From Escherichia coli (GTDB taxonomy: Bacteria > Pseudomonadota > Gammaproteobacteria > Enterobacterales > Enterobacteriaceae): DNA of 64,000 nucleotides. Every line of letters starts with the position of its first letter. Position 1 is the stretch's first letter. The stretch lies in the NCBI RefSeq assembly GCF_036507355.1, contig NZ_AP027877.1. One strand, written 5' to 3'. Positions 4,479-56,015 of the stretch are shown here, in pieces. The notes under the pieces were generated by a model, which had not been told where the DNA came from, did not search any database, and saw only the letters and a program-made list of their open reading frames with translations. A program made the position numbers and the translations under genes.

Positions 4479-7274
4479 ATGGAGATAATTATGAGAAACC
4501 TCTGTTTCTTACTGACGTTAGTGGCAACTCTGTTGCTCCCCGGGCGGCTGATTGCCGCCGCCTTACCGCAGGATGAAAAGTTAATTACCGGGCAACTGGA
4601 CAATGGCTTGCGATATATGATTTATCCGCATGCTCATCCAAAGGATCAGGTAAATTTATGGCTGCAAATTCATACCGGTTCATTGCAGGAAGAAGACAAT
4701 GAGCGCGGCGTGGCTCATTTTGTAGAACATATGATGTTTAACGGCACAAAAACATGGCCGGGTAATAAAGTCATCGAAACATTTGAGTCAATGGGCCTGC
4801 GTTTTGGTCACGATGTTAATGCCTATACCAGCTATGACGAAACGGTGTATCAGGTGAGTTTGCCGACTACGCAGAAACAAAATCTGCAACAAGTGATGGC
4901 AATCTTCAGTGAATGGAGTAATGCCGCAACCTTTGAAAAACTCGAAGTAGACGCTGAACGCGGCGTAATTACTGAGGAATGGCGTGCCCATCAGGATGCG
5001 AAATGGCGCACCTCTCAGGCGCGCCGCCCTTTCCTGCTGGCAAATACCCGTAATTTAGACCGTGAACCTATCGGCCTGATGGATACTGTCGCCACGGTCA
5101 CACCGGCACAATTGCGCCAATTTTATCAACGCTGGTATCAACCAAATAATATGACCTTTATCGTGGTTGGCGATATCGACAGTAAAGAAGCGCTGGCGCT
5201 GATAAAGGATAATTTAAGTAAGCTTCCAGCTAACAAAGCAGCTGAAAATCGCGTCTGGCCGACAAAAGCCGAAAATCACCTGCGCTTTAATATCATTAAT
5301 GATAAAGAAAACCGGGTGAACGGCATCGCACTCTATTATCGCCTGCCAATGGTACAAGTGAACGATGAGCAAAGCTTTATCGAACAAGCTGAATGGAGCA
5401 TGTTAGTTCAGCTGTTCAATCAACGTCTGCAGGAACGCATACAGTCGGGCGAGTTGAAGACTATTTCTGGCGGCACTGCGCGCAGCGTTAAAATTGCACC
5501 CGATTATCAGTCGCTGTTTTTCCGTGTAAATGCACGAGACGATAATATGCAGGATGCTGCGAATGCATTAATGGCAGAGTTGGCAGCCATTGATCAGCAT
5601 GGTTTTTCTGCTGAAGAACTCGATGATGTCAAATCTACCCGCCTCACCTGGCTGAAAAATGCGGTTGATCAGCAAGCTGAACGTGATTTACGTATGCTGA
5701 CCAGTCGCCTGGCATCAAGCTCATTAAATAATACGCCGTTCTTGTCGCCGGAAGAGACATATCAACTTTCGAAACGTCTGTGGCAGCAAATTACCGTGCA
5801 AAGTCTGGCGGAAAAATGGCAGCAGTTAAGAAAGAACCAGGACGCATTTTGGGAGCAAATGGTAAACAATGAGCTTGCCGCCAAAAAAGCATTGTCTCCT
5901 GCGGCTATCCTGGCGCTGGAAAAAGAGTACGCCAACAAAAAGCTGGCGGCTTACATCTTCCCAGGCAGAAATTTATCGTTAACAGTAGACGCTGACCCAC
6001 AGGCGGAAATTAGCAGCAAAGAAACGCTGGCTGAGAATCTGACATCATTAACACTTTCCAATGGTGCCAAGGTTATTCTGGCAAAATCCGCGGGTGAAGA
6101 GCAAAAGCTACAAATTATTGCCGTATCGAATAAAGGCGATTTAAGTTTCCCTGCGCAGCAAAAATCACTTATCGCGCTGGCAAATAAAGCAGTTAGCGGA
6201 AGCGGCGTTGGCGAACTCTCCTCTTCCAGCCTGAAACGCTGGAGTGCGGAAAATTCGGTAACCATGAGCAGTAAAGTCAGTGGCATGAATACGTTGCTCT
6301 CCGTTAGCGCGCGGACTAATAACCCTGAACCTGGTTTTCAGTTGATTAACCAGCGAATCACCCACAGCACGATTAACGACAATATTTGGGCATCGCTACA
6401 AAATGCTCAAATTCAGGCGTTGAAAACGCTCGACCAGCGTCCAGCGGAGAAATTCGCCCAGCAGATGTATGAGACGCGCTATGCTGATGACCGCACGAAA
6501 TTACTGCAAGAAAATCAGATTGCACAGTTTACTGCCGCAGATGCGCTGGCTGCCGATCGCCAGTTGTTTTCATCTCCAGCGGATATCACGTTTGTCATTG
6601 TCGGTAATGTCGCAGAAGACAAACTCGTGGCGTTAATTACGCGTTACTTAGGCTCAATCAAACACTCTGATTCGCCATTAGCCGCAGGTAAACCATTAAC
6701 TCGCGCGACGGACAACGCATCGGTTACTGTAAAAGAACAAAATGAACCTGTGGCACAGGTTTCACAGTGGAAGCGTTATGATTCCCGGACACCTGTTAAT
6801 CTGGCGACGCGTATGGCGCTCGATGCTTTTAACGTCGCACTGGCAAAAGATCTACGCGTTAATATTCGTGAACAGGCATCTGGGGCATACAGCGTTTCTT
6901 CTCGCCTCTCGGTTGATCCTCAGGCTAAAGATATCAGTCATTTGCTGGCTTTTACTTGTCAACCAGAACGACATGATGAACTGTTAACGTTAGCGAATGA
7001 AGTGATGGTTAAGCGTCTGGCTAAAGGGATCAGTGAGCAAGAACTGAATGAATACCAGCAAAACGTTCAGCGCAGCCTCGATATCCAACAGCGTAGCGTT
7101 CAACAATTAGCGAACACTATTGTAAATAGTCTTATTCAATATGACGATCCTGCAGCATGGACTGAGCAGGAGCAATTGCTGAAACAAATGACGGTAGAGA
7201 ATGTTAACACTGCCGTTAAACAATATCTTTCTCATCCGGTAAATACTTATACCGGAGTATTATTGCCAAAATAA
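4479..7274 (+). CDS. pqqL: periplasmic M16-family zinc peptidase PqqL
   Basis: 931-aa ORF with signal peptide and inverted zinc-binding motif HFVEH (HxxEH) typical of pitrilysin/M16 peptidases. Confidence 0.9.
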   Translation: MEIIMRNLCFLLTLVATLLLPGRLIAAALPQDEKLITGQLDNGLRYMIYPHAHPKDQVNLWLQIHTGSLQEEDNERGVAHFVEHMMFNGTKTWPGNKVIETFESMGLRFGHDVNAYTSYDETVYQVSLPTTQKQNLQQVMAIFSEWSNAATFEKLEVDAERGVITEEWRAHQDAKWRTSQARRPFLLANTRNLDREPIGLMDTVATVTPAQLRQFYQRWYQPNNMTFIVVGDIDSKEALALIKDNLSKLPANKAAENRVWPTKAENHLRFNIINDKENRVNGIALYYRLPMVQVNDEQSFIEQAEWSMLVQLFNQRLQERIQSGELKTISGGTARSVKIAPDYQSLFFRVNARDDNMQDAANALMAELAAIDQHGFSAEELDDVKSTRLTWLKNAVDQQAERDLRMLTSRLASSSLNNTPFLSPEETYQLSKRLWQQITVQSLAEKWQQLRKNQDAFWEQMVNNELAAKKALSPAAILALEKEYANKKLAAYIFPGRNLSLTVDADPQAEISSKETLAENLTSLTLSNGAKVILAKSAGEEQKLQIIAVSNKGDLSFPAQQKSLIALANKAVSGSGVGELSSSSLKRWSAENSVTMSSKVSGMNTLLSVSARTNNPEPGFQLINQRITHSTINDNIWASLQNAQIQALKTLDQRPAEKFAQQMYETRYADDRTKLLQENQIAQFTAADALAADRQLFSSPADITFVIVGNVAEDKLVALITRYLGSIKHSDSPLAAGKPLTRATDNASVTVKEQNEPVAQVSQWKRYDSRTPVNLATRMALDAFNVALAKDLRVNIREQASGAYSVSSRLSVDPQAKDISHLLAFTCQPERHDELLTLANEVMVKRLAKGISEQELNEYQQNVQRSLDIQQRSVQQLANTIVNSLIQYDDPAAWTEQEQLLKQMTVENVNTAVKQYLSHPVNTYTGVLLPK

Positions 7275-22582: not shown

Positions 22583-22618
22583 GACGCGGCATCCGGCTAT
22601 TGCATGTCTGCGGAAACG

Positions 22619-24360: not shown

Positions 24361-25017
24361 ATGTTAACCCGTGAACAAATGGCGATGCGAGTCGCCCGCG
24401 AATTGCGCGATGGCTATTACGTCAATCTCGGAATTGGTATCCCGACCCTGGTGGCAAACTACATTCCTGACGGGATGGATGTGATGTTGCAGTCAGAAAA
24501 CGGTTTGCTGGGAATGGGCGCATTTCCTACGGAAGACGAACTGGACGCCGACATGATTAATGCCGGTAAACAAACCGTTACCGCGCGGAAAGGCGCGGCA
24601 ATTTTCGATTCGGCGCAATCATTCGCCATGATCCGTGGCGGTCATGTGGATCTGACTGTACTTGGCGCATTTGAAGTGGATGTGAATGGCAACATTGCCT
24701 CATGGATGATCCCCGGCAAGATGGTTAAAGGCATGGGCGGTGCCATGGATCTGGTTGCCGGTGCCGAGAATATTATTGTGGTAATGACCCACGCCTCGAA
24801 ATCCGGCGAATCCAAACTGCTTCCTGACTGTACCCTTCCGTTGACCGGCGCCGGATGCATCAAACGCGTCTTAACCGACCTTGCTCTGCTGGAAATTGCT
24901 GACGGAGTTTTCATTCTGCGCGAGCGCGCGCCGGGAATCAGCGTTGCGGAAATCATCGCCAAAACCGCCGGTAAGTTGTTTGTGCCGGAACATGTCCCGG
25001 AAATGCAATTCAACTGA
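24361..25017 (+). CDS. 3-oxoacid CoA-transferase subunit B (AtoA/ScoB-like)
   Basis: 218-aa ORF; conserved SENG motif region (MLQSENGLLGMG) of B-subunits. Confidence 0.85.
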   Translation: MLTREQMAMRVARELRDGYYVNLGIGIPTLVANYIPDGMDVMLQSENGLLGMGAFPTEDELDADMINAGKQTVTARKGAAIFDSAQSFAMIRGGHVDLTVLGAFEVDVNGNIASWMIPGKMVKGMGGAMDLVAGAENIIVVMTHASKSGESKLLPDCTLPLTGAGCIKRVLTDLALLEIADGVFILRERAPGISVAEIIAKTAGKLFVPEHVPEMQFN

Positions 25018-28593: not shown

Positions 28594-29364
28594 ATGAATT
28601 TACAAGGTAAAACTGCGCTGGTGACGGGGTCCACCAGCGGTATCGGACTCGGTATTGCTCAGACACTGGCAAACGCTGGCGCGCAAGTGATCCTCAACGG
28701 CTTCGGTGATGTTGACGCGGCAATCAATGCGGTTTCTCGTATGGGTAAAACGCCTGGCTATCATGAGGCAGACCTCAGCGATGAATCGCAAATTATCAAC
28801 ATGGTGGCCTACGCATGGCGGGAATTTGGCGGTGTGGACATTCTGGTGAATAACGCCGGGATCCAGTATGTCTCCCCGGTTGAATCTTTCCCTGTAGAAA
28901 AATGGAACGCCATTATCGCTATCAATCTCTCTTCTGTCTTTCACACCACGCGTCTGGCACTGCCAGAAATGCGCACTCGTAACTGGGGTCGGATCATTAA
29001 CATTGCCTCTGTGCATGGGCTGGTAGCGTCGAAAGACAAATCAGCTTATGTTGCGGCAAAACATGGCGTGGTGGGACTCACAAAGACCATTGCTCTGGAA
29101 ACTGCGCAGACCGGTATTACCTGCAACGCGCTCTGCCCTGGCTGGGTGCTGACGCCGCTGGTACAACAGCAGATTGATAAGCGCATTGCGCAAGGCGAAG
29201 ATGCGGAAAGCGCGCGTGACGCCTTACTGGCAGAAAAACAGCCTTCTCGTGAATTTGTGACTCCGCAACAACTGGGTGAACTGGCGCTGTTTCTCTGTTC
29301 GGATGCGGCAGCACAAGTGCGTGGGGTGGCGTGGAATATGGATGGCGGTTGGGTAGCGCAGTAA
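28594..29364 (+). CDS. 3-hydroxybutyrate dehydrogenase (SDR family)
   Basis: 256-aa ORF; SDR cofactor motif TGSTSGIG and YxxxK catalytic region; strong resemblance to BdhA-type enzymes. Confidence 0.85.
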   Translation: MNLQGKTALVTGSTSGIGLGIAQTLANAGAQVILNGFGDVDAAINAVSRMGKTPGYHEADLSDESQIINMVAYAWREFGGVDILVNNAGIQYVSPVESFPVEKWNAIIAINLSSVFHTTRLALPEMRTRNWGRIINIASVHGLVASKDKSAYVAAKHGVVGLTKTIALETAQTGITCNALCPGWVLTPLVQQQIDKRIAQGEDAESARDALLAEKQPSREFVTPQQLGELALFLCSDAAAQVRGVAWNMDGGWVAQ

Positions 29365-29370
29365 GTGTTC

Positions 29371-29392
29371 GCCGGATGACGCGTCATCCGGC
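29371..29392. terminator. 22-bp perfect palindrome (REP-like), bidirectional terminator between the dehydrogenase gene and osmC
   Basis: gccggatgacg|cgtcatccggc between convergent genes. Confidence 0.5.
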
Positions 29393-29398
29393 AATGCT

Positions 29399-29830
29399 TT
29401 ACGATTTCAACTGGTAATCCAGCGTAATTTCCGCTTTCAGTACCTGAGAGACCGGGCATCCTGCTTTTGCTTTCTGGATGATGCCGTCAAAGGTAGAGGC
29501 ATCAATACCCGGCACCGCAACTTCACTCTTCAGTGCGATTTTCGTAATCGCAAAACCGGCATCCACTTTATCCAGCGACACATCGGCGGTGGTATCAATC
29601 GATGTTGGCGTGAATCCCGCTTCCCCCAGCATTAATGAAAGCGCCATTGAGAAACATGCGGCATGCGCTGCGCCAATCAGTTCTTCAGGGTTGGTTCCTT
29701 TTTCGCCTTCAAAACGCGTGTTAAATCCATACGGCTGTTGGTTCAGCACGCCACTCTCGGTGGATACTGTTCCCTTCCCGCGTTTGATATCGCCTTCCCA
29801 GTGTGCCTGACCTTTCTTATGGATTGTCAT
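29399..29830 (-). CDS. osmC: osmotically inducible peroxiredoxin OsmC
   Basis: 143-aa ORF matching recalled OsmC (MTIHKKGQAHWEGDIKRGKG...). Confidence 0.95.
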   Translation of the reverse strand: MTIHKKGQAHWEGDIKRGKGTVSTESGVLNQQPYGFNTRFEGEKGTNPEELIGAAHAACFSMALSLMLGEAGFTPTSIDTTADVSLDKVDAGFAITKIALKSEVAVPGIDASTFDGIIQKAKAGCPVSQVLKAEITLDYQLKS

Positions 29831-30629: not shown

Positions 30630-30785
30630 TTCATAACCATCAGTCCTCAATGACGATTAAACACCATTGCCTGCGCAATGGTGTTTTTGTTTTTATCTGC
30701 TTTATACTTGGGGCCGACGCCCTGGCGGTAAAGCAAAGACGATAAAAGCGTGCCAGGGATGGATATTCAAAAAAGAGTGAGTGAC

Positions 30786-44236: not shown

Positions 44237-45625
44237 ATGGCACTGCAAAATGAGAAAAATAGTCGTTATCTTTTACGCGACTGGAAACCAGAAAATCCGG
44301 CCTTCTGGGAAAATAAAGGAAAACATATTGCTCGAAGAAACCTCTGGATATCAGTCAGTTGTCTACTTCTTGCCTTCTGTGTCTGGATGCTATTTAGCGC
44401 AGTTACCGTTAATCTCAATAAAATCGGTTTTAATTTTACTACCGATCAACTCTTTTTATTAACCGCATTACCCTCCGTTTCTGGCGCATTATTGCGTGTT
44501 CCCTACTCCTTTATGGTACCTATATTCGGTGGACGCCGATGGACGGTTTTTAGTACTGCAATCCTGATTATTCCTTGCGTCTGGCTCGGAATTGCCGTGC
44601 AGAATCCGAATACTCCTTTTGGGATCTTTATCGTTATCGCTTTGCTATGCGGTTTTGCAGGTGCGAACTTTGCTTCGAGCATGGGCAATATCAGTTTCTT
44701 CTTTCCAAAAGCCAGGCAAGGGAGCGCTCTTGGGATTAATGGCGGATTAGGAAACTTAGGTGTAAGTGTGATGCAGCTGGTTGCACCGCTGGTCATTTTT
44801 GTACCCGTATTTGCCTTTCTCGGCGTCAATGGCGTCCCGCAGGCCGACGGTTCGGTGATGTCGCTGGCGAATGCCGCATGGATTTGGGTACCGCTACTGG
44901 CGATTGCCACGATCGCCGCCTGGTCAGGGATGAATGATATCGCCAGTTCACGCGCGTCAATTACCGACCAGCTCCCTGTCTTACAACGCCTGCATCTCTG
45001 GCTGCTGAGCCTGCTTTACCTTGCCACCTTCGGTTCGTTTATCGGTTTTTCTGCGGGTTTTGCCATGCTGGCAAAAACCCAGTTCCCGGATGTGAATATT
45101 CTGCGCCTGGCGTTCTTTGGCCCATTTATCGGTGCCATCGCGCGGTCGGTTGGTGGTGCTATTTCCGATAAATTCGGCGGCGTGCGGGTGACGTTGATCA
45201 ACTTTATTTTTATGGCGATTTTCAGCGCCCTGCTGTTCCTTACCTTACCGGGCACAGGCTCCGGTAATTTCATCGCCTTTTACGCCGTATTTATGGGGCT
45301 GTTTCTGACCGCGGGTCTGGGAAGTGGTTCTACTTTCCAGATGATCGCCGTCATCTTTCGCCAGATAACCATTTATCGGGTGAAGATGAAAGGCGGTAGT
45401 GATGAGCAAGCTCAGAGAGAAGCCGTCACCGAAACGGCGGCGGCTCTGGGCTTTATCTCAGCCATTGGCGCAGTGGGCGGCTTTTTTATTCCGCAGGCGT
45501 TTGGCATGTCGCTCAATATGACCGGCTCTCCGGTAGGCGCAATGAAAGTGTTTTTAATCTTCTACATCGTTTGTGTGCTACTGACCTGGCTGGTTTATGG
45601 TCGGCGGAAGTTCAGCCAAAAATAA
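44237..45625 (+). CDS. narU: nitrate/nitrite transporter (MFS, NarK family)
   Basis: 462-aa protein MALQNEKNSRYLLRDWKPENPAFWENKGK...; ORF-track start at 44177 is an upstream extension. Confidence 0.92.
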   Translation: MALQNEKNSRYLLRDWKPENPAFWENKGKHIARRNLWISVSCLLLAFCVWMLFSAVTVNLNKIGFNFTTDQLFLLTALPSVSGALLRVPYSFMVPIFGGRRWTVFSTAILIIPCVWLGIAVQNPNTPFGIFIVIALLCGFAGANFASSMGNISFFFPKARQGSALGINGGLGNLGVSVMQLVAPLVIFVPVFAFLGVNGVPQADGSVMSLANAAWIWVPLLAIATIAAWSGMNDIASSRASITDQLPVLQRLHLWLLSLLYLATFGSFIGFSAGFAMLAKTQFPDVNILRLAFFGPFIGAIARSVGGAISDKFGGVRVTLINFIFMAIFSALLFLTLPGTGSGNFIAFYAVFMGLFLTAGLGSGSTFQMIAVIFRQITIYRVKMKGGSDEQAQREAVTETAAALGFISAIGAVGGFFIPQAFGMSLNMTGSPVGAMKVFLIFYIVCVLLTWLVYGRRKFSQK

Positions 45626-45633
45626 GAGATCGA

Positions 45634-45680
45634 TGCCTGACACGTCTTATCAGGCTACAACCGTGTCGCATCCTACAAGG
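45634..45680. repeat. REP-like palindromic element in the narU-narZ intergenic region
   Basis: gatgcctgacacgtcttatcaggctaca...gcatcctaca resembles REP consensus (GCCTGATGCGACG...CGTCTTATCAGGCCTAC). Confidence 0.5.
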
Positions 45681-45719
45681 CATCAGATCCCAATTCATTC
45701 CTGGAGCAGGAGTTATGTC

Positions 45720-48700
45720 ATGAGTAAACTTTTGGATCGCTTTCGCTACTTCAAACAAAAGGGCGAAACCTTTGCCGATGGTCACGGACAGGTGATGCAT
45801 AGCAACCGCGACTGGGAGGACAGCTATCGCCAGCGTTGGCAGTTCGACAAAATCGTGCGTTCCACCCACGGTGTTAACTGTACAGGCTCCTGTAGCTGGA
45901 AAATCTACGTTAAAAATGGTCTGGTGACCTGGGAAATCCAACAGACCGACTACCCGCGCACTCGCCCTGACCTGCCCAATCATGAACCTCGCGGCTGCCC
46001 GCGTGGCGCAAGTTACTCCTGGTATCTTTACAGCGCTAACCGCCTGAAATACCCGCTCATTCGTAAACGACTGATTGAACTGTGGCGCGAAGCCCTCAAA
46101 CAACACAGCGATCCGGTACTGGCGTGGGCATCGATTATGAACGATCCGCAAAAGTGCCTGAGCTACAAACAAGTGCGTGGGCGCGGCGGGTTTATCCGCT
46201 CCAACTGGCAGGAACTAAACCAGCTGATTGCCGCCGCTAACGTCTGGACCATCAAAACCTACGGCCCGGATCGCGTTGCCGGTTTCTCGCCGATCCCGGC
46301 GATGTCGATGGTTTCTTACGCCGCCGGAACACGTTATCTGTCACTATTAGGTGGCACCTGTTTAAGCTTCTACGACTGGTATTGCGACCTGCCGCCCGCC
46401 TCGCCGATGACCTGGGGCGAGCAAACCGACGTACCGGAATCTGCCGACTGGTATAACTCCAGTTACATCATCGCCTGGGGGTCTAACGTACCGCAGACAC
46501 GTACGCCGGACGCCCATTTCTTTACCGAAGTACGCTACAAAGGCACTAAAACCATCGCCATTACCCCTGACTACTCTGAAGTGGCCAAATTGTGCGACCA
46601 GTGGCTGGCACCGAAACAAGGCACTGATAGCGCCCTGGCGATGGCAATGGGCCATGTGATTTTAAAAGAGTTTCATCTCAATAATCCCAGCGACTACTTT
46701 ATCAACTACTGCCGCCGCTATAGCGACATGCCGATGCTGGTAATGCTGGAACCTCGCGACGATGGTAGCTACGTACCCGGGCGCATGATCCGTGCGTCTG
46801 ACCTGGTAGATGGACTAGGCGAAAGCAATAATCCGCAGTGGAAAACCGTGGCGGTTAATACCGCAGGTGAATTGGTAGTGCCGAATGGTTCGATTGGTTT
46901 CCGCTGGGGAGAAAAAGGCAAATGGAATCTGGAATCCATTGCCGCCGGTAAGGAAACCGAATTGTCGTTAACCCTGCTCGGTCAACATGACGCCGTTGCA
47001 GGCGTGGCTTTCCCCTACTTTGGCGGCATCGAAAATCCGCATTTTCGCAGCGTAAAACACAATCCTGTCCTGGTGCGTCAATTACCCGTTAAAAACCTGA
47101 CATTAGCCGATGGCAGCACCTGTCCAGTGGTCAGCGTTTATGATTTGGTACTGGCGAATTACGGCCTCGATCGCGGGCTGGAAGATGAAAACAGCGCGAA
47201 AGATTACGCTGAAATCAAACCGTACACCCCAGCCTGGGGTGAGCAAATTACCGGCGTACCGCGCCAGTATATTGAAACCATCGCCCGCGAATTTGCCGAT
47301 ACCGCCCATAAAACGCATGGGCGCTCAATGATTATCCTCGGTGCTGGCGTCAACCACTGGTATCACATGGATATGAACTACCGTGGGATGATCAATATGC
47401 TGATCTTCTGCGGTTGTGTCGGGCAAAGCGGCGGCGGCTGGGCGCATTATGTCGGTCAGGAAAAACTGCGCCCACAAACCGGCTGGTTGCCGCTGGCCTT
47501 TGCGCTCGACTGGAACCGCCCACCGCGCCAGATGAACAGTACCTCGTTTTTCTACAATCATTCCAGCCAATGGCGCTATGAAAAAGTCTCTGCGCAGGAG
47601 TTACTTTCACCGCTCGCCGATGCCAGTAAGTACAGCGGTCATCTGATTGATTTCAACGTTCGCGCCGAACGTATGGGCTGGCTACCTTCTGCGCCGCAGC
47701 TGGGGCGTAACCCGCTCGGGATTAAAGCTGAAGCCGACAAGGCCGGATTATCCCCCACAGAATTTACCGCCCAGGCGCTGAAATCGGGCGATTTACGTAT
47801 GGCCTGCGAACAACCAGATAGCGGCAGCAATCATCCGCGTAATTTGTTTGTCTGGCGTTCTAACCTGCTTGGCTCCTCCGGCAAAGGCCACGAGTATATG
47901 CAGAAGTATCTGCTGGGGACCGAAAGCGGGATTCAGGGCGAGGAACTCGGTGCCAGCGACGGGCTCAAACCGGAAGAAGTCGAGTGGCAAACTGCGGCGA
48001 TTGAAGGCAAGCTCGACCTGCTGGTGACGCTCGACTTCCGCATGTCCAGTACCTGCCTGTTCTCCGATATCGTTCTGCCCACCGCCACCTGGTATGAAAA
48101 AGACGATATGAACACCTCGGATATGCATCCGTTTATTCATCCGCTATCTGCGGCGGTCGATCCGGCCTGGGAATCACGCAGCGATTGGGAAATCTACAAA
48201 GGTATTACCAAAGCATTTTCGCAAGTGTGTGTGGGTCATCTTGGCAAAGAAACCGACGTGGTATTGCAACCACTGCTGCACGACTCTCCGGCAGAGCTCT
48301 CACAGCCGTGTGAAGTGCTCGACTGGCGCAAAGGCGAATGCGATCTGATTCCAGGTAAAACCGCGCCGAATATTGTGGCGGTGGAGCGCGACTACCCTGC
48401 TACGTATGAACGCTTTACCTCGCTCGGGCCATTGATGGACAAACTTGGCAACGGCGGTAAAGGGATTTCGTGGAATACGCAGGATGAAATCGATTTCCTC
48501 GGTAAACTCAATTACACCAAGCGTGATGGCCCAGCGCAGGGGCGTCCGCTGATTGACACCGCCATTGACGCTTCAGAAGTGATTCTGGCACTGGCACCAG
48601 AAACCAACGGTCATGTTGCAGTTAAAGCGTGGCAGGCGCTGGGCGAGATCACCGGACGCGAACATACCCATCTGGCGCTGCACAAAGAGGACGAGAAGAT

Positions 48701-52451: not shown

Positions 52452-53345
52452 ATGAAACCGCAGGTTTACCACGTCGATGCTTTTACCTCTCAACCATTTC
52501 GCGGCAATTCTGCCGGTGTTGTTTTCCCCGCCGATAATCTTAGCGAAGCGCAAATGCAGCTTATCGCCCGCGAATTAGGTCATTCGGAAACTGCTTTTCT
52601 GCTGCACAGCGACGACAGCGATGTGCGCATCCGCTACTTTACGCCAACGGTTGAAGTTCCGATTTGTGGTCACGCGACAGTAGCTGCACACTATGTACGT
52701 GCGAAGGTGTTAGGTTTAGGAAATTGCACGGTCTGGCAAACATCGCTGGCAGGAAAACATCGCGTGACTATCGAAAAGCACCACGATGGTTATCGTATTT
52801 CGCTGGAACAAGGTACGCCGGGCTTTGAGCCACCGCTGGAGGGTGAAACACGTGCGGCGATTATCAACGCGCTTCATCTCACTGAGGACGATATTCTGCC
52901 AGGCTTGCCAATTCAGGTGGCAACAACAGGACACTCAAAAGTGATGATCCCGTTGAAACCAGAAGTGGATATCGACGCCCTTTCGCCTGATCTTGCTGCG
53001 CTGAGCGCTATCAGCAAACAGATTGGCTGCAATGGTTTCTTCCCGTTTCAGATCCGCCCTGGCAAAAACGAAACCGATGGTCGCATGTTCTCGCCTGCGA
53101 TTGGTATTGTGGAAGATCCGGTGACTGGCAATGCCAATGGCCCTATGGGTGCATGGTTGGTACATCACAACGTATTGCCCCACGATGGCAACGTGTTGCG
53201 TGTTAAAGGCCATCAGGGGCGCGCATTGGGGCGTGACGGCATGATTGAAGTGACGGTGACAATTCGTGATAACCAACCGGAAAAAGTCACCATTTCAGGC
53301 ACAGCGGTGATTTTGTTTCATGCCGAATGGGCAATTGAACTCTGA
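52452..53345 (+). CDS. yddE: PhzF-family isomerase YddE
   Basis: 297-aa ORF, PhzF-like (MKPQVYHVDAFTSQPFRGNSAGVVF...). Confidence 0.85.
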   Translation: MKPQVYHVDAFTSQPFRGNSAGVVFPADNLSEAQMQLIARELGHSETAFLLHSDDSDVRIRYFTPTVEVPICGHATVAAHYVRAKVLGLGNCTVWQTSLAGKHRVTIEKHHDGYRISLEQGTPGFEPPLEGETRAAIINALHLTEDDILPGLPIQVATTGHSKVMIPLKPEVDIDALSPDLAALSAISKQIGCNGFFPFQIRPGKNETDGRMFSPAIGIVEDPVTGNANGPMGAWLVHHNVLPHDGNVLRVKGHQGRALGRDGMIEVTVTIRDNQPEKVTISGTAVILFHAEWAIEL

Positions 53346-53351
53346 AACCGT

Positions 53352-53433
53352 TGTCTGATGCGCTTCGCCTGTCAGGTCTACAACCGGGCTAATGTATGCC
53401 GGATAAGGCGTTTACGCCGCATCCGGCAACCTG
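53352..53433. repeat. BIME: pair of REP elements between yddE and nhoA
   Basis: tgtctgatgcgcttcgcctgtcaggtctaca and gccggataaggcgtttacgccgcatccggca (classic REP palindromes) between convergent genes. Confidence 0.65.
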
Positions 53434-53440
53434 ACATAAA

Positions 53441-54286
53441 TTATTTTCCCGCCTCCGGGTGCGTATCAAACGCCGCCATCACCAGCGCTAACTCATCCAC
53501 GGTAAAGCCATGTTTCGCATCATCCACGCCCAGACCAAACTGTTCTTGCATCACGGCATATAACGACGCCACATCCGGTAGATTTCGCTGCTCCACCGCG
53601 TGCCCATTTTCATAATGGGTAAAATGAAAATTGGGCAGTGTCAGCTTGCCGCCGTCCGGTAAATGGCGGCACATCAGCAAATGATGGCGAAAATGCGACT
53701 GCGGCCAGTGCGCCGACCAGAAATTGCCCATCACATAATCGCTTTGTTGCTGCTCGCAGAGATCAAAACGGTACATCGACTGCCAGTGCTGATGATGATT
53801 AAACTGCAACACCCAATCATCACCCTCCTGCAACAACCGATACTCTCCGTGTGGCGTGGTCTGCACGAGATCGGGAACTAAACGAATCGGCGCGGTTAGC
53901 GTCTGCCCACCGAAACCGACATCAGCAATCCATTTTTCCTCTTCCAGTTCCACCAACAGCAAACGATGGGTGCGCGGCGGTAATGCTGGCGGATTTGATA
54001 ACACTACGCGCCCTAACAAGCTGCGAACGTTAAACCCCAGCTCGCGTAACACCCGCTCAAACACGCCATTCTGCTCAAAACAGTAACCGCCACGACGGGC
54101 TATCACCAGTTTCTCTTCCAGCGATTGATCATCAAGCTGTATTTCCCTCGGCAGCAAAACGTCAAGGTTTTCAAACGGAATGGTGCAATTGTGTTTCAGG
54201 TGCAATGCACGAAGCGTATCAATATTGACCGCAGCAGCTCCCGACCAGTTAATACGGGCAAAATAGTGATTCAGAATGGGCGTCAT
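53441..54286 (-). CDS. nhoA: N-hydroxyarylamine O-acetyltransferase
   Basis: 281-aa ORF; arylamine N-acetyltransferase catalytic Cys region RRGGYCFEQN. Confidence 0.9.
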   Translation of the reverse strand: MTPILNHYFARINWSGAAAVNIDTLRALHLKHNCTIPFENLDVLLPREIQLDDQSLEEKLVIARRGGYCFEQNGVFERVLRELGFNVRSLLGRVVLSNPPALPPRTHRLLLVELEEEKWIADVGFGGQTLTAPIRLVPDLVQTTPHGEYRLLQEGDDWVLQFNHHQHWQSMYRFDLCEQQQSDYVMGNFWSAHWPQSHFRHHLLMCRHLPDGGKLTLPNFHFTHYENGHAVEQRNLPDVASLYAVMQEQFGLGVDDAKHGFTVDELALVMAAFDTHPEAGK

Positions 54287-55712: not shown

Positions 55713-56015
55713 TTCGCGGCATGGCAATTAACTTGCCAGTCAGAGGATATTGTTGTCCGTTATGGTAGCGAAGATTTTGCCATCAAACTTTTTAATGCAA
55801 CATTGCCGGAAGCAGAGACGGTAGCAGCCAGAGTGAAACAAGAACTTAAACTGGCAGCTATCCCGCATCAGGCATCTGCTGTTAGTGCGTTCGTTACGGT
55901 TAGTCACGGGATTACCTGGTCTGCTCCCGCCAAAACGGCTGAACAAATTATTTCAGATGCCGACGCCGCGTTATACCGGGCGAAAGCAAGTGGGCGAAAT
56001 CGATGGGCTTTATAA
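55713..56015 (+). pseudogene. C-terminal fragment of a GGDEF-domain diguanylate cyclase (no start codon, N-terminus absent)
   Basis: open frame translating ...EDIVVRYGSEDFAIKLFNATLPEAETVAARVKQEL...DADAALYRAKASGRNRWAL: degenerate RYGGEEF-type motif and typical GGDEF C-terminal end, but only about 100 codons and no upstream ATG. Confidence 0.6.

Follow-up and report, generated by a model that had tools for sequence, protein, structure and literature searches.

Are three palindromes that lie between the genes of an Escherichia coli chromosome segment members of the REP family, and what might they do there? A sequence-only reading had called all three REP/BIME-like and had suggested that they act as terminators or mRNA stabilisers. 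Our analysis indicates that they are very probably three different objects, namely the BIME REP118, the fossil of another BIME and a unique palindrome that is not a REP, all of them RNA hairpins at the 3' ends of genes. The family label was right for the first, which is annotated in K-12, fits the second in a historical sense only, and had to be withdrawn for the third. Nothing in this set departs from known biology: REP118 is already catalogued, strains are well known to differ in which REPs they carry, and the decay of REPs is likewise well documented. The outcome is of little consequence beyond annotation.

The window and the REP yardstick

The stretch of DNA analysed here (64,000 nucleotides, hereafter the window) is a segment of the E. 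coli chromosome from ddp to nhoA, in reverse-complemented orientation relative to K-12. Its gene order is ddpABCDF, a LysR regulator with a six-gene ketone-body cluster, osmC, bdm, sra, maeA, adhP, yddM, fdnIHG, narU, narZYWV, yddE and nhoA. The three palindromes are present at 45634-45680 (site A, narU-narZ), 53352-53433 (site B, yddE/nhoA) and 29371-29392 (site C, between the 3-hydroxybutyrate dehydrogenase gene, bdh, and osmC), and all of them are intergenic, with genes taken either from the annotation or from open reading frames. The window contains six perfect stems of 11 bp or more, where dinucleotide shuffles would give 0.15.

REPs are defined by a GTAG tetranucleotide 5' of the hairpin foot and by an imperfect palindrome with a conserved AA/GC bulge; those of E. 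coli fall into types y, z1 and z2, number about 600 copies per genome and are often paired in opposite orientation as BIMEs (PMC8266576, PMC3333891, PMC3479197). As a yardstick we built profile HMMs from 252 kb of K-12 sequence in six regions, using the canonical ybcF-purK BIME for seeds. The training units were 30 K-12 REPs from other loci (nine long y, five short y and 16 z), with the units of REP118 excluded; one profile was made for each set (y-long, y-short and z), and the window was scanned with all of them. Names of K-12 REPs follow the supplement of bioRxiv 10.64898/2026.03.23.713779. The RefSeq annotation of MG1655, in the copy consulted, showed no repeat_region features, even near 5.5 kb, where our profile search gave a two-unit REP (5565-5670).

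The profiles recognised both units of site B over their full length, matched site A in part and scored site C at chance level (Table 1). Simpler searches were less informative. A fixed-spacing consensus pattern had zero matches in the window, because REP loop lengths vary, and a 14-mer head-arm pattern matched the z unit of site B alone. At gathering thresholds, Rfam returned only the fdnG SECIS element in the window; as Rfam has no general REP family, naRNA4 (RF02564, a two-unit model derived from REP325) was used as a proxy. Two further HMM matches, at 55863-55874 and 24850-24881, were dismissed as chance level, the former being ordinary sequence with no surrounding palindrome. The BIME layout, i.e., two opposite REPs joined by a linker, was found in the window at site B, and at narU-narZ in outgroups only (E. 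albertii and others).

Table 1. Positions of the three sites, their parts and neighbouring features in the window
Feature	Position	Strand	Evidence or remark
Repeat GACGCGGCATCCGGC, directly after the ddpF stop codon	22583..22597	+	14/15 direct repeat of 29378-29392 (GACGCGTCATCCGGC)
Site C, perfect palindrome GCCGGATGACGCGTCATCCGGC, 22 nt (11+11)	29371..29392	.	Inverted-repeat search; fold; shuffles
Site C, right part and flank TGACGCGTCATCCGGCAATGCTT	29377..29399	.	Common to island-free E. coli; K-12 and SaT040 alleles
Site C, best match to z profile	29385-29393	+	3.3 bits, E 8; 9-mer CATCCGGCA only; chance level
Site A, outer inverted repeat, 5' arm GATCGATGCCT	45628..45638	+	Inverted-repeat search; fold
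Site A, truncated y-type REP	45635..45658	-	y-long HMM 45655-45631, 16.7 bits, E 3e-4, model positions 5-28 of 38 only
Site A, linker AACCGTGTCGCATCC and scar of lost z-type REP	45659..45677	+	Outgroup spacers
Site A, outer inverted repeat, 3' arm AGGCATCAGATC	45678..45689	+	Inverted-repeat search; folds
Site B, left unit, short y-type REP	53353..53381	-	y-short HMM 18.7 bits, E 9e-5, full length
Site B, linker AACCGGGCTAAT, head-to-head, 12 nt	53382..53393	.	Read from sequence
Site B, right unit, z-type REP GTATGCCGGATAAGGCGTTTACGCCGCATCCGGCA	53394..53428	+	z HMM 43.1 bits, E 2.6e-12, full length
In-vitro Rho-binding (rut) peak, projected	53479..53609	+	K-12 1534703-1534833 (- strand), Table S16 of bioRxiv 10.64898/2026.03.23.713779

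A true BIME at yddE/nhoA and an eroded one at narU-narZ

Site B (53353-53428) is a true BIME, the REP118 of K-12, in which a short inverted y-type REP is joined by its linker to a z-type REP. Its sequence is 100% identical to that of K-12, as is the surrounding interval (53270-53520) to K-12-type strains. The HMM matches correspond to K-12 coordinates 1534882-1534957, and the supplement of bioRxiv 10.64898/2026.03.23.713779 lists REP118 of MG1655 at 1534884..1534958 as 'convergent, yddE/nhoA'. The y unit reads GTAGACCTGACAGGCGAAGCGCATCAGAC on the minus strand, which places it in the inverted (iREP) orientation on the plus strand, and begins 7 nt past the yddE stop codon (53343-53345). Its GTAG is intact (CTAC at 53378-53381 on the plus strand), and its stem is weakened by four substitutions relative to the y-short consensus. 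An AACCG(G) motif following the CTAC of the y unit is common to site B, ybcF-purK and site A. The z unit, which ends 12 nt short of the nhoA stop codon (53441-53443, minus strand), carries the canonical AA/GC bulge, visible as an internal loop in the fold, and its hairpin core matches the crystallised REP GTAGGACGGATAAGGCGTTTACGCCGCATCCG (PMC3479197). It aligns to half of the naRNA4 model, scoring 39.9 bits (E 8e-6) where the gathering threshold is 59.5 bits. The y unit has a median of seven similar places per genome and the z unit at least 40 among the matches listed (megablast median 23).

REP118 is a core-genome BIME between the convergent genes yddE and nhoA; at least 5,149 of 5,426 complete genomes (95%) have it there in full, with 90.8-100% identity and constant length. 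In sequence, position and architecture site B is the same as REP118, a member of the E. coli REP/BIME family as classified by Gilson and Bachellier (Y, Z1, Z2; Ton-Hoang et al. 2012, PMC3333891). Its y unit, with GTAG, and its z unit, with the AA/GC bulge, stand head-to-head across a short linker, between convergent genes as is the case for about 60% of REPs. It differs from the canonical form in its eroded y stem and in its z unit, which has GTAT (53394-53397) in place of the conserved GTAG. The E. coli REP transposase is reported to tolerate no mutation of GTAG (PMC8266576, PMC3479197), and REP118 is therefore probably immobile. From the same sequence features we would predict that TnpA-REP/RAYT acts poorly or not at all on sites A and C and on the z unit of site B.

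Site A differs from the family more deeply, in that only a partial y unit is left. By its sequence it is a decayed BIME remnant, REP-derived, no longer a REP and unable to form the REP hairpin. On the plus strand the unit reads GCCTGA, CACGTCTTATCAGGC and TAC-AACCG, against the canonical TGCCTGATGCGACGCTTGACGCGTCTTATCAGGCCTAC-AACCGG of ybcF-purK. The head arm, the CTAC (45655-45658) and the flanking AACCG have been kept, and the loop, the inner tail arm and one C of GGCCTAC have been lost. This 1-nt deletion moves CTAC into the stem, and a 6-bp GCCUGA/UCAGGC stem is the only one that the y remnant can still form. No match to naRNA4 was obtained for site A, and its sequence has a median of two copies per genome. 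The scar of the z unit lies between 45673 and 45674, the loss having occurred exactly between CGCMTCC direct repeats. T45674 is a private G-to-T change of the window, every other genome having G, and the best full-length matches to site A are all 98.2% identical.

Comparison across genomes allowed us to follow this decay. Among 5,422 records the narU-narZ spacer occurs in two length classes only, a long allele of 219 nt (1,860 records, about 34%), which is that of the window, and a short allele of 206 nt (3,562), which is that of K-12 and retains the relic GCCTGATG followed by TAC-AACCG. Because CACGTCTTATCAGGC in the long allele and GCCTGATG in the short one cannot be derived from each other, the two alleles represent independent deletions from a full unit. 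The spacers of sister species, anchored on the narZ start codon in one genome per species, retain the missing parts. In E. whittamii the inverted y unit is complete (25.9 bits) and a z unit is absent; in E. albertii the y unit has decayed and the z unit is complete (GTAGGTCGGATAAGGCATTAACGCCGCATCCGACA, 38.1 bits); and in the divergent 'E. coli' E69 the y unit is almost gone and the z unit is complete (30.7 bits). These spacers suggest that the Escherichia ancestor carried a BIME at narU-narZ, made of an inverted y REP, a linker and a z REP, that E. coli lost the z unit, and that its y unit was gutted by one or the other of the two internal deletions. Citrobacter and Klebsiella carry REP/BIME elements of their own in the homologous spacer, which makes it a recurrent REP landing site. 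With intact units kept in sister species, the narU-narZ spacer offers a small, clean example of BIME erosion by independent deletions.

What has outlasted the REPs at this locus is the 11-nt inverted repeat around them, GATC(G/T)GATGCCT, which is kept in all Escherichia versions and closes the minimum-energy fold. The 5' arm begins 3 nt past the narU stop codon (45623-45625) and the 3' arm lies 30 nt before the narZ start codon (45720). The two arms pair as the same outer stem when either E. coli allele, E. whittamii or E. albertii is folded; the fold energy is -20 kcal/mol for both E. coli alleles and -31 to -40 kcal/mol for the species with intact units. No covariation was found in the outer stem, and its conservation could reflect low divergence alone. 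Through the outer repeat, the remnant (45628-45689) folds into a hairpin within the narUZYWV operon, at about -20 kcal/mol.

A unique palindrome at the edge of the ketone-body island

Site C is a genuine, non-random hairpin and is not a REP. It is among the six long perfect stems counted above; as RNA it forms a 9-bp stem with a 4-nt loop, and its fold of -18 to -21 kcal/mol has a z-score of -4.8 to -5.7. It sits midway between the stop codons of bdh (29362-29364, plus strand) and osmC (29399-29401, minus strand), 6 nt from each. With the REP family it shares arm words of 8-9 nt and none of the defining features: its flanks are GTTC and AATG, with neither GTAG nor CTAC, its palindrome has no mismatch bulge, it scores 13.4 bits against naRNA4 (E 4.4), and it is single-copy, with a median of one per genome. 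It is closer in kind to the hairpins without a U-tract at convergent gene ends that the broad RepRanger definition admits as 'putative REPs' (PMC12306157), being stable, intergenic and close to two stop codons; it differs from them in being unique in the genome and in having its perfect form only in the few genomes that bear the island.

The sequence-only reading had also placed this palindrome at the boundary of a strain-specific ketone-body operon, and this was borne out. The full palindrome was found in 228 genomes (4%), in all of which bdh adjoins osmC. Another 4,870 or so genomes match only from 29377 onward (query positions 14-36), within GCGCCTGACGCGTCATCCGGCAATGC adjoining osmC, and the left arm (29371-29376) is confined to island-bearing genomes. 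Since the sequence from 29377 onward is common to island-free strains, the island boundary runs through the palindrome itself. Site C consists of a right arm and loop that are ordinary osmC 3' flank, and a left arm that is present only where the ketone-body island abuts it. In island-bearing genomes the site C query has a second BLAST place: the direct repeats GACGCG[G/T]CATCCGGC flank the LysR gene and ketone-body island of about 6.8 kb, at 22583-22597 and 29378-29392.

The alternative in which all three sites are functional E. coli REPs, recognised by the REP-associated transposase and by REP-binding proteins, has appearances on its side, in that all three are intergenic, G+C-rich and palindromic and contain short words common in REP arms (GCCGGATG and CATCCGGCA at site C, GCCTGA...TCAGGC at site A), and the RepRanger definition of an intergenic palindrome lacking a T-rich tail takes in all of them. 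We nonetheless give it a very slight probability, as site C is a perfect, bulge-free palindrome occurring once per genome with a profile score expected by chance, site A lacks its tail arm and covers only 24 of the 38 positions of the profile, and even the strongest unit, the z unit of site B, carries a tetranucleotide that the E. coli enzyme would not tolerate. More generally, a 'REP-like' call made by eye needs to be checked for GTAG, bulge and copy number, and one of the three palindromes considered here fails on every count. A second alternative is that the elements act mainly on DNA, site C and the repeat next to ddpF being recombination sites for gain and loss of the island, and sites A and B being neutral debris with no role in RNA. 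Consistent with this, the 14/15 repeat bracketing the island looks like a z-type REP tail, and the empty site has one copy of it; the REP content of the region is highly polymorphic, with two narU-narZ alleles, several ddpF-osmC alleles and the BIME REP120, located between yddM and fdnI in K-12, missing from the window; and the effects of REPs on mRNA are weak or context-dependent genome-wide. However, the empty site of K-12 carries an additional 34 nucleotides that separate the repeat from the ddpF stop codon. It is not what simple recombination would leave, and it is not explained by simple deletion or by simple insertion involving the two 15-nt repeats. The island annotation contains neither an integrase nor a transposase, the repeat has a mismatch and is partly a common REP-arm word, such that it could be a coincidence, and the full-length retention of REP118 in 95% of genomes speaks against pure debris. 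We therefore regard a mainly DNA-level role as unlikely.

It is tempting to speculate that the 15-nt REP-tail-like repeats are footprints of REP-mediated gain or loss of the island and that the site C palindrome is a junction product, an idea to which we assign a slim chance. If it were true, REP-like hairpins would be entry points for a metabolic island that lacks an integrase. A milder and similarly speculative variant is that the two narU-narZ remnant alleles might set different narU:narZ expression ratios across E. coli phylogroups.

Putative roles of the hairpins at RNA 3' ends

With the three sites read as different objects, what they have in common is their place in the transcript, each hairpin being G+C-rich and beginning 3-12 nt past a stop codon. 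Most REPs have no poly-U and are not intrinsic terminators, and they are described as barriers to 3'-exonucleases and as partial Rho-dependent terminators, depending on context (bioRxiv 10.64898/2026.03.23.713779). In published genome-wide data REPs do not uniformly lengthen mRNA half-lives, and fragments of two to four REP hairpins gave no detectable Rho dependence. Liang et al. 2015, as cited in PMC12306157, reported lower translation where a REP is fewer than 16 nt away from a stop codon. By analogy, a function of the three sites as terminators or mRNA stabilisers is plausible and in line with the published view of REPs, and the most likely form of it would be an exonuclease barrier combined with partial, Rho-assisted termination. 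The anatomy of the hairpins, together with the analogy, suggests that they most likely block 3'-to-5' exonucleases and in this way make the upstream mRNA more stable. Another possible effect is a pause of RNA polymerase that lets Rho terminate nearby; at REP118 a rut site has been mapped just downstream, and we converted its coordinates by means of the alignment between window and K-12. According to bioRxiv 10.64898/2026.03.23.713779, REP118 is followed at a distance of 18-51 nt by the rut peak and by a bicyclomycin-sensitive transcript, downstream of yddE and antisense to nhoA. Finally, as the hairpins lie within 15 nt of a stop codon, translation of the gene before them may be slightly lowered, by analogy with published REPs.

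Site A is subject to a further constraint. As narU and narZYWV behave as one operon, the site must let transcription through, and its hairpin cannot be a strong terminator. The layout recalls the intra-operon REPs of malE-malF and yjdM-yjdN (REP325), which are mRNA stabilisers and partial Rho-dependent terminators, in having a hairpin after the upstream stop codon and between co-transcribed genes. Those loci contain arrays of canonical units; at site A there is one degenerate hairpin, at about -20 kcal/mol.

The same considerations bear on a third alternative, that the hairpins are Rho-independent (intrinsic) terminators, those at sites B and C serving their convergent gene pairs in both directions. 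The position at the 3' ends of convergent genes, the stable stems (-18 to -36 kcal/mol) and the moderately U-rich tail of site C on the plus strand (AAUGCUUUACGAUUU) would fit, and other perfect hairpins in the window, e.g., 34058-34085 and 30659-30686, do look like true terminators. Against this, a scan for a hairpin followed by a T-tract on both strands of the three sites called no terminator and found no U-tract, the genes downstream of site A, in the same operon, respond to the promoter upstream of it, and an absence of poly-U is the rule among REPs. Intrinsic termination thus seems improbable, and we favour an exonuclease barrier with Rho-assisted pausing.

Mapped 3' ends in K-12 were compared with these positions. 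Term-seq tables list no 3' ends for narU, narZ, yddE and nhoA, which low expression could explain. For osmC they give an end at 1557103/1557105, 46-48 nt past the stop codon. This end follows a second hairpin (CGCGTCAGGC...GCCTGATGCG), which in the window is replaced by the island; the osmC end mapped in K-12 is thus not at the homologue of site C. K-12 expression data for osmC should not be transferred uncritically to island-bearing strains, because the 3'-end hairpin differs there: in these strains the 3' ends of osmC and bdh share one hairpin, unlike that of osmC in K-12.

Ancestry of the narU-narZ region

The segment spanning the yddE-nhoA spacer (53270-53520) is 100% identical to K-12-type strains; the narU-narZ spacer 8 kb away (45540-45760) carries the non-K-12 allele, and its best-matching strains, SK1144 and Seattle 1946 among them, reach 99.5% identity. 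Together these matches suggest a mosaic ancestry for the region. Within the narU-narZ spacer, the REP content is enclosed by an 11-nt inverted repeat, GATC(G/T)GATGCCT, with arms at 45628-45638 and 45678-45689, and this bracket is common to E. coli, E. whittamii and E. albertii regardless of what lies between the arms. The repeat could be an older hairpin that received the BIME (a pair of REP units), or it could be a component of the element itself. Position 45674 is a T in the window versus a G in all 5,400-odd database genomes as well as the outgroups (CATCCTACAAGG versus CATCCGACAAGG). This T is a substitution private to the window, or else an error of sequencing.

Beyond Escherichia, many species of Citrobacter and Klebsiella have REP/BIME units of their own in the homologous narK/narU-narG/narZ spacer (L009-L070, the set of such spacers compared across other Enterobacteriaceae). 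Kluyvera, Enterobacter, Raoultella and others have, in place of such units, a shared motif, GAGCAGTGTAACCACGGGG...CCCCGTCAGGAG, that is conserved immediately upstream of the start codon.

REP content of the window and the yddM-fdnI spacer

The REP density of the 64-kb window is low: it holds two intact REP units and one relic, compared with approximately 33 units in 252 kb of sampled K-12 sequence. The yddM-fdnI spacer is a REP presence/absence polymorphism between the window and K-12. In the K-12 comparison sequence (L001 21990-22410), this spacer contains two tandem copies of a 178-bp unit, which consists of the hairpin found once in the window together with a BIME that pairs a short y unit with a z unit; the first BIME of the tandem is annotated as REP120. 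The window's hairpin, with its A and T tracts, looks like a bidirectional terminator. The only Rfam family to exceed its gathering score in the window was SECIS_3, a known and expected element of fdnG.

Features in the window and in comparison strains
Feature	Coordinates	Location	Remarks
Perfect 10-bp hairpin, single copy	window 34058-34085	yddM-fdnI spacer	A and T tracts on flanks
SECIS_3 (selenocysteine insertion element)	window 38057-38115 (-)	fdnG	Rfam, 84.3 bits
GCTGTAGAGATGCTAAC tandem repeats	L072 300-410 (strain 26561); L073 300-425 (Survcare045)	ddpF-osmC spacer	
Extra hairpin GCCTGATGTG...CGCATCAGGC	L071 2340-2560 (strain SaT040)	dosP-osmC spacer	two REP tail-like arms

The ketone-body island and the ddpF-osmC junction

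The ~6.8-kb island encodes a LysR regulator, CoA transferase A/B, a thiolase, a 3-hydroxyacyl-CoA dehydrogenase, a GntP permease and a 3-hydroxybutyrate dehydrogenase, with no integrase or transposase among its annotated genes, and is carried by only 228 of the 5,426 complete genomes. It is flanked on both sides by a direct repeat, GACGCG[G/T]CATCCGGC, matching at 14 of 15 positions (22583-22597 and 29378-29392).

The ddpF-osmC junction also varies in other ways. Some strains have two or three tandem copies of a 17-nt unit that includes the ddpF stop codon, and in ~1,350 genomes the ddp operon lies away from osmC. The osmC-side neighbour in strain SaT040 is dosP, not the ddp operon; the extra hairpin of this strain lies upstream of the same GCGCCTGACGCGTCATCCGGC flank.
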